Below are positions 34,974 to 40,327 of a DNA stretch of 64,000 nt, piece by piece. The notes below the pieces were generated by a model. It ran no database searches. It was not told the DNA's origin and saw nothing but the letters and a program-made list of their open reading frames with translations. The DNA lies in the NCBI GenBank assembly GCA_963752045.1, contig CAVVWN010000005.1:46607-110606 (forward strand), written 5' to 3'. Position 1 is the first letter of the stretch. Every line of letters starts with the position of its first letter. The translations under genes were made by a program, and so were the position numbers. The DNA is from an uncultured Acidobacteriota bacterium. Its GTDB lineage: Bacteria; Acidobacteriota; Vicinamibacteria; Vicinamibacterales; SCN-69-37.

Positions 34974-37900
34974 ATGGGCGCGACTCCGGGTGTCGGACTC
35001 CGGCCGCGCGATCGCCTCACGGGCGACGCGGTCGTCATCGGCATCGACGTCGGCTCCACGACGGTCAAGGCCGTCGTCGTCGACCCGGACGACCAAGGAG
35101 ATCCTCTGGTCGGACTACCAGCGCCACGAGACGCGCCAGCCCGAGATGACGCTCGAGCTGCTTGTGCGCGATCGGCAACGCGCGTTCCCGACGTCCGCAC
35201 GCGACCGATCCGCACGCTTCATCACCGGCTCGGGCGCGCGGTCCGCTCGCGCGAGCCGCTCGGCGCGCAAGTTCGTCCAGGAGGTCAACGCCGTGACCCT
35301 GGCGGTCGAGCAGCTGCACCCCGACGTCGGCAGCGTCGTCGAGCTCGGCGGCCAGGACGCCAAGATCATCATGTTCAAGGAGAACGAGGAGACCGGCGAC
35401 AAGACGCGCCATCGACCTCGATGAACGACAAGTGCGCGTCCGGCACCGGCGCGACGATCGACAAGTGCATCATCAAGGTCGGCATGCCGCGCGAGGCGCG
35501 TCGCGACGCTGCGCGTTCGACCCGACCAAGCTGCACCACGTCGCCGCCAAGTGCGGCGTGTTCGCCGAGACCGACATCGTCAACCTCGTGAAGTCGGGCA
35601 TCCCGGCGCACGAGATCATGTGCTCGCTCGCCGACGCGATCGTGCACGCAGAACCTCTCGGTGCTGACGCGCGGCAACACGCTCAAGCACAAGGTGCTGC
35701 TGCTCGGCGGCCCGAACACGTACCTGCCGTTCCTGCCAGGAGTGCTGGCGGCAGCGCATCCCCGAGGCCTGGGCGCGCGCGGCTACGAGTACCCGACAGG
35801 ACGTGCCCGATCGAGGAGCTGATCTTCGTCCCGAAGAACGCCGAGTACTACGCCGCGCTACGGCGCGGTGCTGTACGGCCTCCACGAGCCGGCCGAGGTG
35901 TCGGCAAGTACCGCGGGCCTCGATGCCGCTGCGACGACGTTCATCACGCACGGCCGCAAGTCGCGCGCTCGGCGAGACCGCCGGGCCGCCGCTCGTCGAC
36001 GACGCGACGCGGAGCTGCGACGCGTTCCGCGAGCAGTACACGCATCCCGGAGTTCGACGCCGGCGACGTTCGAGCCGGGCCAGGTCGTCCGCGGCGTCAT
36101 CGGCCTCGACGGCGGCTCGACGTCGTCCAAGGCCGTGCTCGTCGACGAGACACGGGCGAGCATCCTGAACAAGGCCTACACGCTCTCGAAGGGCAACCCG
36201 ATCCAGGACACGAAGGACCTGCTCGCGCGAGATGCAAGGCGTCGTGACCGATCAGGGCGCCACGCTCGAGGTGCACGGGCTTCGGCGCCACCGGCTACGC
36301 CGCCGACGTGCTCGAGGAGTCGCTGCGGCGCCGACGTCAACATCGTCGAGACCGTCGCGCACATGATGAGCGCGGTGCGCTTCGTGCCCGACGCGTCGAC
36401 GTCATCTGCGACATCGGCGGCCAGGACATCAAGGTCCTGTTCATGGCAGAACGGCGACGTCAAGAACTTCCGCCTGTCGAACCAGTGCTCGGCCGGCAAC
36501 GGCATGCTGCTGCAGGCGATGGCCGACCAGTTCGGCGTGCCGGTGCACGACGTACGCCGACACCGCGTTCAGGCGCGAGCTGCGCCCGAAGTTCAGCTAC
36601 GGCTGCGCCGTCTTCCTCGACGCCGACCGCGTGAACTTCCAGAAGGAGGGCTACTCCAAGGAGGAGCTGCTCGCGGGCCTCGCGCTGGTGCTGCCGAAGA
36701 ACGTCTGGCAGTACGTCGTGCAGATCCCGCGCTGGCCGAGCTCGGCCGCGTGTTCGTGCTGCAGGGCGGCACCCAGCAGCAACCTCGCCGCGGTCAAGGC
36801 GCAGGTCGACTACATCAAGGAGCGCGTGCCCGGACGCCGAGGTCGTTCGTGCACCCGCACTGCGGCGAGGCCGGCGCCATCGGCGCCGCGATCGAGACGC
36901 TGCGCGTCGTCCAGCGCCGCGGCGGCTCGACGCTTCATCGGCCTCGATCAGGCCATCGACCTCGACGTACACAGCCGACCAACGACGAGAGCGACGCGCT
37001 GTCACTTCTGCCCGAACGACTGCACGCGCACGTTCATCGACACGGCGACCCCCGACGGCACGCACCAGCCGCTACATCTCGGGCTTCTCCTGCGAGAAGG
37101 GCACCGTCGAGAGCAAGGACGCGCTGAACGCGCTCAACAAGGAGCGCAAGGCGCGCATGAAGAAGTACCCGAACCTGGTCGACTACGAGGCGAAGCTCGC
37201 GTTCAAGCAGCTTCTACGACGCCGTCGCCGATGCCCGCAGCGCGGGCACGCCGATCGACGACGTCGAGGTCAAGCGCAGCGCTGCTCGGCGCGGTCGCGC
37301 GACAAGCAGGTCGACCGCGGCCGTTCCAGCGGCGCTCGCGGACGATGCGGCCTGAAGCGCCGGGACGTCCGCGATCGGCATCCCGCGCGTGCTCAACCTG
37401 TACTCGACGGGCCCGTTCTTCCGGACCTACTTCGAGACGCTCGGCATCCCGACGCAGAACGTCGTGTTCTCCGACGAGACCACCGAGGAGATGTGGGTCG
37501 AGGGCGGCAAGTACGGCTCGATCGATCCGTGCTACCCGTCCAAGGTCGCCCAGGCGCACATCCACAACCTGCTGTTCCACAGCACGCGACGAGAAGAAGC
37601 CGCTCAACTACATCTTCTTTCCCGTGCATCACGCACGTCCCGACGTTCGATCGCGAACACGATGGACACGGCGTAGCTGCCCGATCGTCGCCGGCACGCC
37701 CGAAGGTCATGAAGGCGGCGTTCACCAAGGAGATCGACTTCTTCGCCGAGCGCGGCATCGAGCTACGTCGACCCGGCGCTGACGCTCACCGAGCCGCTAC
37801 TTGCTGCAAGCAGCAGCATGTTCGACGACCTGGGGCCCGCGCCTCGGCATCACCGAGGACGAGAGCGACTTCGCGGTCGACCAGGCGCTTCAAGGCGCTG

Positions 37901-38700
37901 CGAGGCGTTCGAGCGACGACCTGCAGAGCGCAAGGGCCGCGAGATCCTCGAGAGGTCGAGGCGCGAGAACCGCGTCGCGCTCCTGATGCTCGGCCGCCCG
38001 TACCACATCGATCCCGGGCTGAACCACGGGATCCCCGAGGAGTTCCAGGCGCTCGGCTACCCGATCCTGTCGATCCGCTCGCTCCGCAAGGACCCGGCGC
38101 TGGCTGCGAGCCGCTTCTTCGAGGACGATCGCCAAGGGCGTCATCGAGACGCCCTCGACATCAACGACGTGTGGCCCGAGAACTACTCGGCCAACAGCGC
38201 GCAGAAGGTGTGGGCCGCGAAGTTCGCCGCGCGGCACCCGAACGTCGTCGTGCCTCGACCTGTCGAGCTTCAAGTGCGGCCACGACGCGCCGACCTACGG
38301 CCTCATCGACTCGATCATCGCCTCCAGCCGGCAAGGCCGTACTCGGCGCTGCACGACATCGACGCGAACAAGCCCGGCGGCTCGATCAAGATCCGCGTCA
38401 AGACCTACGCCCACACGCTGAAGCTCCTCAAGGAGCGGCTCGAGGACCAGGCGACGCAAGAAGGTCGAGCTCGACCGCGTCGCTGGACCGAGAAGAAGCT
38501 CGAGCTGCATGGCGCGCCTGCAGCAGCGAGCTCGCGGCGACCGGCACGACTCCGACGACCGAGCTCGACCGCGAGGTCGCGGCCCTCGACGACCCAGAGT
38601 CGCGGCGTGGCGCGAGGCGGACGATGTCAACAAGCCGAAGGCCGAAGCGCGCCGCGGCTCTCAACGTGGCGCGGACCTAAAGGATCAGGAGACTGCATGA
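34974..38700 (+). pseudogene. BcrA/BadF/HgdC-type double ATPase (acyl-CoA dehydratase activase-related) large protein, heavily frameshifted as sequenced
   Basis: AGGAG + ATG 34974. Two actin-fold ATPase modules are recognisable: IGIDVGSTTVKAV, ELGGQDAKII, MNDKCASGTGATIDKC; and IGLDGGSTSSKAVL, CDIGGQDIKVLFM, NQCSAGNGMLLQ. Then come CHFCPNDCTRTF and a DUF2229-like region (IGIPRVLNLYSTGPFFRTYFETLGIP, LLMLGRPYHIDPGLNHGIPEE, SSFKCGHDAP). They can be followed only by switching forward frames dozens of times. Confidence 0.75.
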
Positions 38701-40327
38701 GCACGCACGAAACGCAGGAAGCGACCTGCACGACCATCGGTATCGACCTCGACGTCGACGCTCGATCGAGCGCCGAGCTCAAGGAGTTCGAGCTCGAGGA
38801 GCGCAAGCGCCTCGGGCTTCCGACCGAGAGCGCCAAGCACTGGTTCGACGCGGTCGCCACGCGAGTTCACGCGCGAGCAGCGCGAGCACACGACGATCCT
38901 GGTCTCGCGGCCTGACCATGGCGCACGACCTGTTCATCCAGGCGGCGCTCGCGCGGCATCGGCTACAAGGTCATGCGCGCTCGACACGCCGGACAACGAC
39001 GCGCTCCAGTTCGGCAAGGAGTTCGGCAACCGCGGCCAGTGCAACCCGACGTACTTCACCGTCGGCAACCTGGTGAAGTACCTCGACGGACCTGCGCGAC
39101 GCAGGGCATGAGTCCAAGGACGAGATCGTCAAGAACTACGTGTTCATGACGGCCGGCGCGTGCGGCCCGTGCCGCTTCGGCATGTACGTCACCGAGTACC
39201 GCAAGGCGCTCCGCGACGCCGGCTTCGACGGCTTCCGCGTGCTGCTGTTCCAGCAGACCGGCGGCCTCAAGCAGGCGACCGGCGAGGGCGTCGGGCTCGA
39301 GATGAACCCGACGTTCTTCTGGGGCATCGTTCGCGGCGATCCTGGTCGGCGACGTGCTCAACGCGCTCGGCTACCGCATCCGCCCCTACGAGGTCGAGCC
39401 GGGCGCCACCGACCGCGCGCTCGAGACGCAGCAAGCGTCTGATCTCGAACGCGCTCGAGCAGAACACGTCGCTGCCGCTCGGCGCTGCTACAGGGCGCGC
39501 AAGACCATCGGCGCGGTCAAGGTCGACCGCACGCGCGCCAAGCCGAAGCGTCGGCATCATCGGCGAGTTCTGGGCGATGACCACCGAGGGCGACGGCAAC
39601 TACGACCTGCAGCGCTTCCTCGAGGCCGAGGGCGCCGAGCGCGACATCCAGCTCGTCACCGCGTGGCTGCTCTACATGATCTGGGAGGGCCGGTACGACA
39701 CCGAGGCAGCGCCGACGCTGCGCGGCGTCGACAAGGCCAAGGACGAGCACGGCGGCAGCAAGTTCGGCCTCAAGGGCGTCGACGTGCGCAAGCGCAAGGC
39801 GCTCGCTGTGGGCCGGCGACCAGGTCCTCCGCGGCCTGTTCCAGACGTTCGCGGCCTCGATGGGCCTCAACGACTACCACCTGCCGGACATGGACCAGAT
39901 CGCCGAGGTCTCGCACGCGTTCTACGACAACAACCTCCGCGGCGGCGAAGGCCACATGGAGGTCGGCAAGCTGATCCAGAACGTCGCGTACGCGAAGGTC
40001 AACATGACCCTCTCGGTGAAGCCGTTCGGCTGCATGCCGAGCTCGTCGGTCTCGGACGGCGTCCAGTCGCTGATCACCGAGCTCTATCCGCAGGGCATCT
40101 TCCTGCCGATCGAGACCAACGGCGAGATTCCAGATTCCGATTCCAGATGCACCTCCTCGCAATCGGACGACGCGCACGACGAACCGGTCACGCCCATGGA
40201 GAGCCTGACGCTCGTGCCCGCCGGCGAGCGGCTCGAGCTGTCGATCGCGCCTCGGCCGATCCCGGCCGTGCCACTCCCCGTCTCCCCGGCAGGAGCCGCT
40301 TCCGTCCACCAGCTGTCGCACGCGTGA
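38697..40327 (+). pseudogene. HgdB/2-hydroxyacyl-CoA-dehydratase-like partner protein of the activase, frameshifted as sequenced
   Basis: AGGAG + ATG 38697 overlaps the upstream stop (ATGA). The segments MSTHETQ.., EFTREQREHTTILVS, GLTMAHDLFIQAAL, GIGYKVM, ALDTPDNDALQFGKEFGNRGQCNPTYFTVGNLVKYL, YVFMTAGACGPCRFGMYVTEYRKAL, VGIIGEFWAMTTEGDGNY and SVKPFGCMPSSSVSDGVQS lie in successive frames. Confidence 0.65.

Follow-up and report, generated by a model that had tools for sequence, protein, structure and literature searches.

Organization of the locus

The analyzed sequence is a stretch of 64,000 nucleotides from an uncultured Acidobacteriota bacterium (G000:C5:46607-110606; here called the window). 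Its source genome G000, a metagenome-assembled genome (MAG), comprises 4.995 Mb in 16 contigs with a GC content of ~68%. The window harbors a locus of two genes, a tandem HgdC-type ATPase fused to a DUF2229 region and a partner protein, whose conserved peptides can be followed only by hopping between reading frames. The locus and the span of its errors, the latter derived from a hidden Markov model (HMM), a frameshift-aware alignment, and a four-way DNA alignment, are as follows:

34974..38700, + strand: first gene, tandem HgdC-type ATPase and DUF2229; ~57 frameshift events; ATG at 34974 preceded by GGAG, TGA at 38698-38700
38697..40327, + strand: second gene, partner with a DCCP/HgdB/BCR-like fold and conserved Cys motifs; ~13 frameshift events
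35091..40226, no strand: error island, delimited by the outermost of the inferred extra or missing bases

The ATG of the second gene overlaps the stop codon of the first gene (ATGA, 38697-38700). An earlier reading of the DNA, made from the letters alone (the sequence-only reading), had named these landmarks, and the ribosome binding site with ATG at 34974, the TGA at 40325-40327, and the ATGA were all found; the true 3' end of the second gene is uncertain and may lie at 40325-40327 or up to ~40364, as the alignment continues in another frame.

When 401 sampled genomes of the order were searched at the DNA level, 56 matched the locus at E ≤1e-30, including G000 itself and the unpublished G295, which contributes to no other result. 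Intact orthologues are present in G403, G116, G180, and G022. Within the family of G000 the distribution is patchy, since 2 of 50 sampled genomes match, plus G006. The latter belongs to a different genus of the same family (9 contigs, 62% complete) and carries the nearest copy within G006:C1:853000-866000, with 87% and 79% DNA identity. The activase gene precedes the partner gene in G403, G116, G180, and G006; the order is reversed in G022 and others. A single shift near 8042 divides the partner gene of G116 (G116:C4) into two open frames, 6874..8094 and 8055..8639; the rest of this locus is intact. As in the window, the genes that come next encode an ECF sigma factor and a Ser/Thr kinase, with identities of 37% and 46%. 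Furthermore, a distant paralogue of ~1,600 amino acids, intact and fused, lies at G000:C7:28255-33048 and is 25% identical to the activase orthologue. Besides ATPase domains and DUF2229, it has a C-terminal part resembling the partner, and its residues 1186-1309 align with the partner.

The G403 orthologue of the first gene matched PF01869 in two stretches (E 1.6e-70) and PF09989 (E 6.9e-50); with the NCBIfam model TIGR00241 "acyl-CoA dehydratase activase" it reached 182.7 bits as compared to a cut-off of 125.4. Sequence matches of the ATPase domains were HgdC (1hux), HadI (4eht), MbdQ/MbdP (9gai), and DCCP-R (7yyl), with E-values of 3e-23 to 1e-13. For the partner, a Pfam search of three orthologues up to E 10 returned no family apart from one match at chance level, and PF06050 (HGD-D) segments were not found in this search; neither an NCBIfam family nor a sequence match in the PDB was obtained. 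The partner family is very large (of 8000 candidates scored, 7999 reached E ≤1e-10), with relatives annotated as "2-hydroxyglutaryl-CoA dehydratase" in Acidobacteria, Myxococcota, and others. An alignment of 42 partner sequences revealed four invariant cysteines, namely Cys105, Cys145, Cys148, and Cys426. Foldseek comparison of an AlphaFold2 model (mean pLDDT 76.5) gave the double-cubane cluster protein (DCCP), the catalytic subunits of benzoyl-CoA reductases (MbdON, BzdNO), and 2-hydroxyisocaproyl-CoA dehydratase (HadBC) as top PDB matches, with probabilities of 0.99-1.00 and E-values of 2e-5 to 6e-4 at low TM-scores of 0.27-0.45 and identities of 10-14%. Hence, the label "HgdB-like" holds for the partner at the level of the fold. 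The gene call made from the letters, a double BcrA/BadF/HgdC-type ATPase with a DUF2229-like region and an ATGA-coupled HgdB-like partner, agrees with the results of Pfam, NCBIfam, and Foldseek.

Frame hopping in both genes

Translation of positions 34974-40400 distributed the conserved peptides among all three forward frames, and a Pfam search with the long open frames of the window yielded only fragments of BcrAD_BadFG (PF01869) and DUF2229 (PF09989). A seven-state codon-usage HMM, trained on 540 long open reading frames (ORFs), was then applied to the whole genome. In the range from 35093 to 39803 it placed 34 frame switches on the same strand. With 28 and 26 switches, the 5-kb bins that cover the locus ranked 1 and 2 genome-wide, the genome mean being 4.2 per 10 kb.

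Plain tblastn with an intact homologue was also tried as a shift detector. It passed straight through the shifts and was replaced by our own frameshift-tolerant protein-to-DNA alignment; ORF lists and plain tblastn hide shifts because wrong frames in this GC-rich DNA seldom contain stops. The intact, ATGA-coupled orthologues of G403 (1211 and 587 amino acids) were used as references, whereas the G006 copy was rejected for this purpose because it is itself broken by 47 + 17 events, mostly +1. The first gene showed 57 events (41 "+1", 13 "+2", 3 "-1") at 73% amino-acid identity, and the second gene 13 events (11 "+1", 1 "+2", 1 "-1") at 59% identity. One extra base accounted for 52 of the 70 events, 46 switches lasted for at least 8 codons, and this alignment revealed no in-frame stop in either gene. 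With the more distant G022 proteins as references, 40 + 12 events were counted. The same procedure gave 0 and 1 events for the two genes of G116, 1 and 0 for G180, and 0, 0, and 2 for three more distant relatives. Since these controls produced only 0-2 events, the alignment procedure does not invent shifts.

Translations, HMM, and frameshift-aware alignment thus concur with the sequence-only reading that the peptide is readable only by frame switching. Its count of at least 35 switches was right in finding many and too low in number, as the 57 + 13 events and the 46 persistent switches demonstrate. It had also proposed to align the stitched peptide with an orthologue and to count the indels and their directions; the peptide aligned with the G403 proteins at the identities given above.

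Direction, base, and context of the extra bases

The HMM assigned 26 of its 34 switches to the +1 direction, and a four-way DNA alignment (MAFFT) of the window, G403, G116, and G006 revealed 39 single-base insertions private to the window as compared to 7 single-base losses. The inserted bases were G in 20, C in 15, and A in 4 cases; T was never inserted. Both the predominance of one-nucleotide insertions, i.e. of switches from frame n to n+1 (26 of 34 by HMM, 52 of 70 by alignment), and the identity of the extra base as G or C (35 of 39) had already been recognized by eye.

No identical base was located beside the insertion in 35 of the 39 cases; therefore, the insertions are not homopolymer-length errors. 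Many of them create a GC dinucleotide where the relatives differ in having G or C. At position 36274, for example, the window reads GTGC, G403 GTG, and G116 GTC. We therefore determined how often the base inserted in the broken genome occurs in a relative at a neighboring aligned position at which the broken genome itself has another base, with random junctions as the null. This was the case for 18 of 34 window insertions (null 8.2 ± 2.4, P 0.0005) and for 22 of 31 insertions of the G006 copy (null 6.7; 0 of 2000 trials as high). A further island of G000, located in the pyrG-kdsA region, gave 14 of 18 (null 4.5 ± 1.8; 0 of 3000 trials as high). The extra base typically is the other allele of a neighboring variable site.

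Frameshift islands across the assembly

Islands were defined as at least 5 same-strand switches with gaps of at most 500 nt. The G000 assembly contains 44 such islands with a total of 56,877 bp, and the studied locus is the largest. Inside the islands, 271 switches were +1 and 103 other; outside, the numbers were 822 and 885, a balance as expected for ordinary gene boundaries. Islands are enriched toward contig ends: 17 of the 44 lie within 30 kb of an end, and this part of the assembly, 18.7% of the genome, contains 44.7% of the island bases.

When 105 in-frame pieces taken from nine of the other island regions were scanned with Pfam, consecutive profile pieces of single domains appeared in different frames. 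Profile positions 1-79 and 131-240 of CTP synthase were separated in this way, as were 9-86, 89-227, and 291-461 of aldehyde dehydrogenase and 1-83, 87-205, and 211-282 of glutaminase. DAHP_synth_1 (KdsA), KdsD, CoaE, carbamoyltransferase, NTP_transferase, rhomboid, and acyl-CoA dehydrogenase were likewise split over frames. In the pyrG-kdsA island, G000 carries 19 private single-base insertions and 2 losses, and each of three relatives of the same family has 0 private insertions. The breakage of so many housekeeping genes is incompatible with a viable bacterium; hence, the islands are assembly defects.

Islands were located at C4:284-308 kb, C3:25-31 kb, C3:138-151 kb, C11:80-83 kb, C5:233.7-236.9 kb, C15:104.9-107.7 kb, C16:29.8-34.2 kb, C12:158.8-159.9 kb, C10:273.6-275.5 kb, and C8:1556-1558 kb, among others. 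They contain an exopolysaccharide cluster, the pyrG-kdsA-kdsD-lapB-coaE region, and genes for aldehyde dehydrogenase, glutaminase, and CoA-transferase/acyl-CoA dehydrogenase.

The broken copy of G006

The broken G006 copy stands in a different context, with 0 of 4 flank proteins of the window matching its flanks. Application of the same HMM to 400 kb of this genome (G006:C1:600001-1000000) revealed 7 insertion-biased islands, which make up 2.5% of the bases; none is larger than the one on the locus, and another one extends over 954339-956361.

Persistent switches common to the window and G006 numbered 4 and 3, as compared to 3.65 and 0.87 expected, respectively. The MAFFT alignment contained 32 single-base columns common to both copies, 19 of them with the same base, and most of these shared columns are due to alignment merging. 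Shared ancestral frameshifts were considered as the main explanation and dropped, as a frame-aware comparison gave 7-9 coincident events out of 57 with persistent switches at chance. The breaks of the two copies thus appear essentially independent, apart from a small excess of coincident events.

Failure of two independent assemblies at one place calls for a property of the locus itself. The property that can be demonstrated is a conserved 5-kb stretch attracting very many related sequences over exactly the broken span, in all of the soil and sludge communities analyzed, as described below.

Stop codons and related metagenome contigs

The frame-corrected locus contains 0 stops in 1683 codons. 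Simulated random substitution introduced a mean of 2.9 stops at 2% divergence, with a probability of 0.048 for a stop-free locus, and 7.3 stops at 5%, where 0 of 500 simulations were stop-free. Were the extra bases real, the locus would have taken up ~70 indels yet almost no unconstrained substitution, which is unlike the decay of a pseudogene.

Contigs from four public soil and sludge metagenomes, all from other communities, were aligned on window positions 32501-42500. Thousands of short contigs, 85-99% alike, stacked on 35173-40182, and these bins agree with the span of the error island. Summed contig depth over this span was ~25-800 per bin (only 5-39 in bin 38513-38846) as compared to ~1-52 in most flank bins. 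By far the most frequent differences among the aligned contigs were G-to-C and C-to-G. In 11 of the 12 indel rows listed (12 of 277 rows) the contigs omit one base, at 35648, 35735, 36327, 36445, 36446, 36545, 36575, 36588, 36834, 36844, and 38253; these sites fall at or within a few bases of insertion sites that had been inferred independently.

Origin of the frame hopping

The observations, i.e. the indels with their direction and base, the ~44 islands including essential genes, and the tie between the inserted base and a neighboring variable site, lead us to conclude that the frame hopping is very probably a consensus artefact of the metagenome-assembled genome, built from diverged reads, and not a feature of the organism's DNA. 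As the inserted base typically equals the alternative allele of the neighboring site, blending of diverged reads into one consensus accounts most simply for the data; both the blending as such and the identity of the mixed reads are inferred. The reads behind the consensus would stem from two or more versions of the stretch that have diverged from each other, possibly in strains living side by side or, at this locus, in other soil species that possess similar copies of a very conserved 5-kb sequence. Where the versions differ, both alleles would be written side by side, resulting in one added base. The added base is usually G or C because G/C differences at third positions dominate in this high-GC group. 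In graph consensus methods, both alleles of a site represented at about 50/50 can survive if mismatches are recoded as an insertion and a deletion. The sequence-only reading had considered a locally unpolished consensus as one of two readings, without choosing between them; a poor consensus is indeed supported, whereas the defect is neither unique to this place, given 44 islands, nor of the homopolymer type.

Several points weigh against this explanation. None of the public sequencing runs contains the stretch, the best one reaching a share of 0.06 of the words sampled. Each omission in the metagenome contigs was seen in part of the depth only, e.g. in 85 of 138.7 for position 35735 in metagenome X1; hence, the contig evidence is supportive and not decisive. 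The other islands showed ordinary identities of 70-83% to G006 and other relatives without unusual conservation, and G006 lacks the pyrG region, so that recruitment of reads across species is unsupported as a general cause. Events of the window and G006 coincided at the exact codon in 7 of 57 cases as compared to 1.2 expected; recurrent error at shared variable sites would explain this excess, and so could some shared ancestry. At codon positions 1, 2, and 3, the window differed from G006 by 8.1, 6.7, and 14.6% as compared to 9.3, 7.3, and 34.2% for the intact pair G116-G403, and this weak third-position bias fits added noise but also relaxed selection. Finally, the patchy distribution, the differing context in G006, and the distant intact paralogue imply that loss of the locus would be tolerable.

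A patch of low coverage or missing polishing in a long-read assembly, where random insertions survive without any mixing of diverged sequences, would account for the enrichment of islands near contig ends (44.7% of their bases in 18.7% of the genome) and for island sizes of 0.2-3.3 kb, which are on the scale of reads; indel-fragmented genes are also described for long-read MAGs (PMC9262707; 10.1101/2021.08.23.457338). We nevertheless regard it as unlikely. Random insertions should not equal the neighboring alternative allele, and in three sets they did so 2 to 3 times as often as in the null. Moreover, 35 of 39 insertions lie outside homopolymers, whereas Nanopore consensus errors are described as homopolymer errors (PMC9262707), and low coverage by chance leaves unexplained why this locus should again form the largest island in the sample of G006, with islands amounting to only 2.5% of the bases there. 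A genuine pseudogene, i.e. an accessory PlsA/PlsR-like locus made redundant by its paralogue and decaying by real insertions here and in G006, appears very improbable to us, even if it would agree with the patchy distribution, the different contexts in the two genomes, the intact fused paralogue at G000:C7:28255-33048, the 7 exact coincidences, and the relaxed codon-position pattern. The corrected reading is free of stops where 7 were expected at 5% random substitution, large deletions are missing, and ~52 one-base insertions are opposed by 4 one-base losses. Bacterial pseudogenes usually show the reverse, a bias toward deletions. The identical signature occurs in CTP synthase, KdsA, and other housekeeping genes, persistent switches are shared with G006 at chance level only, and contigs of relatives lack the extra bases in part of the depth. 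Likewise, the recent and odd inactivation suggested in the sequence-only reading is left without support by the absence of stops.

In a more specific form, the extra bases would be real and the PlsA/PlsR-like locus would be decaying independently in two acidobacterial genera by an insertion-biased process, which we hold to be extremely doubtful. If true, this process would add G or C beside variable sites without creating stops; to our knowledge, such an insertion-biased, stop-free mode of gene decay is undescribed in bacteria. Programmed recoding, or another mechanism that reads through the shifts, has only the stop-free corrected reading in its favor and is of practically negligible probability: the ~70 sites share no common slippery motif and include both shift directions, the orthologues are intact without any shift, and the same pattern occurs in unrelated genes on both strands.

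Neighboring genes

The locus is bordered by the following genes, with no break in GC content at the locus along the window:

33675..34847, - strand: calcineurin-like phosphoesterase, upstream neighbor, unbroken (ORF and Pfam)
40468..41064, + strand: ECF sigma factor, downstream neighbor, unbroken (PF07638)
41068..43782, + strand: Ser/Thr protein kinase with TPR repeats, unbroken (Pfam)

Both flanks had been described as intact. This is correct for the adjoining genes; the supposed single gene 40468..43782 consists of two genes, however, and 4 kb upstream the gene of the catalase-peroxidase KatG is split. The katG gene (28752-30904, - strand) is distributed over three frames (30104-30904, 29029-30102, and 28752-29027), with pieces of the peroxidase-domain profile carrying on across the frame breaks, and represents a sparser case of the same assembly defect. 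Between 31103 and 33632 (+ strand), same-strand switches were located at 31199, 31430, 31535, and 32405 in esterase-like and alpha/beta-hydrolase genes; some of these may be gene boundaries and some further frameshifts.

Within the kinase gene, a stretch of 330 bp (41519-41852) reached a summed depth of >1000 in all four metagenomes, and loose contig ends flank 41740-41777. Probably, this stretch is the conserved catalytic-loop motif of Hanks-type kinases, which are abundant in GC-rich soil bacteria.

Consequences for annotation

The frame hopping is uninformative with respect to the biology of the organism and relevant for its annotation. Gene callers will report missing or pseudogenized functions in this MAG and in G006, among them CTP synthase, KdsA, KatG, and a candidate ether-lipid enzyme. 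The gene class of the latter is used to infer producers of ether lipids and of branched glycerol dialkyl glycerol tetraether (brGDGT) biomarkers, as described in PMC13023045; a false pseudogene call would distort such surveys of ether-lipid and brGDGT producers. Furthermore, an extra G or C that equals the neighboring alternative allele provides a simple, read-free marker of consensus errors arising from blended haplotypes.

Comparison with known systems

Indel errors of long-read metagenome assemblies, as addressed by proovframe and IDEEL-type checks, resemble the present case in that single-base indels fragment genes that are intact in relatives, in the assembly of a 5-Mb genome into few long contigs (16), and in the involvement of essential genes. 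For Nanopore MAGs, Sereika et al. (2022; PMC9262707) describe consensus errors as homopolymer indels and indel-fragmented genes as a problem of long-read MAGs, and proovframe is presented as a treatment for such genes (10.1101/2021.08.23.457338). In contrast to these errors, those of G000 are clustered in ~44 islands, are mostly insertions, lie mostly outside homopolymers, and are tied to variable sites.

Beneath the errors, the two genes are most likely intact. Judged from sequence and structural model, they most likely encode an ordinary pair within a known class of ATP-driven iron-sulfur reductases of the BCR/HAD type, to which PlsA/PlsR and Ger belong. The sequence-only reading had called the family functionally uncharacterised; this needs correction, as PlsA/PlsR and Ger, which have the same architecture, are reported to make plasmalogens or alkyl ether lipids (PMC13159169, PMC9702350, PMC12838417). 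By analogy with the family, ATP hydrolysis in the tandem ATPase would push a low-potential electron into an iron-sulfur center of the module formed by DUF2229 and the partner. This module would then reduce a chemically demanding substrate, perhaps a membrane lipid at its sn-1 acyl ester.

PlsA/PlsR of Clostridium perfringens is described as a two-gene operon of the BCR/HAD family with the parts Act1, Act2, Red1, and Red2. Its first protein comprises two HgdC-type activation domains and a first reduction/dehydration part, its second protein a further such part, and the class contains iron-sulfur centers and is sensitive to oxygen (PMC12838417, PMC9702350). The present locus likewise consists of two genes, with two PF01869 domains and PF09989 in the first and a partner of the HAD/BCR/DCCP fold in the second. 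This likeness is one of architecture; the partner here matched no Pfam family, PF06050 included. The hosts differ as well, PlsA/PlsR belonging to a fermenting anaerobe and the present locus to a soil acidobacterium.

Ger of Thermotoga maritima and Desulfatibacillum alkenivorans is a glycerol ester reductase that, as reported by Sahonero-Canavesi et al. (2022; PMC13159169), turns ester into ether bonds when expressed anaerobically in E. coli. The same source gives the "BBD" core, i.e. two PF01869 domains plus PF09989, as a conserved signature of alkyl-ether producers, and exactly this core is found in the first-gene orthologue. In Ger, short D and H (PF06050) segments follow BBD on one polypeptide, whereas here the C-terminal part is a separate gene with no PF06050 match. 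By architecture, the pair is a candidate member of either orthologous group, PlsA/PlsR or Ger.

The best structural matches of the partner model were DCCP/DCCP-R (7yzm, 7yyl, 6eno) and the class I benzoyl-CoA reductases (BzdNO 8s02/8s2r, MbdONPQ 9gai). Instead of being a separate homodimer as in these systems, the ATPases of the present locus are arranged in tandem and fused to DUF2229.

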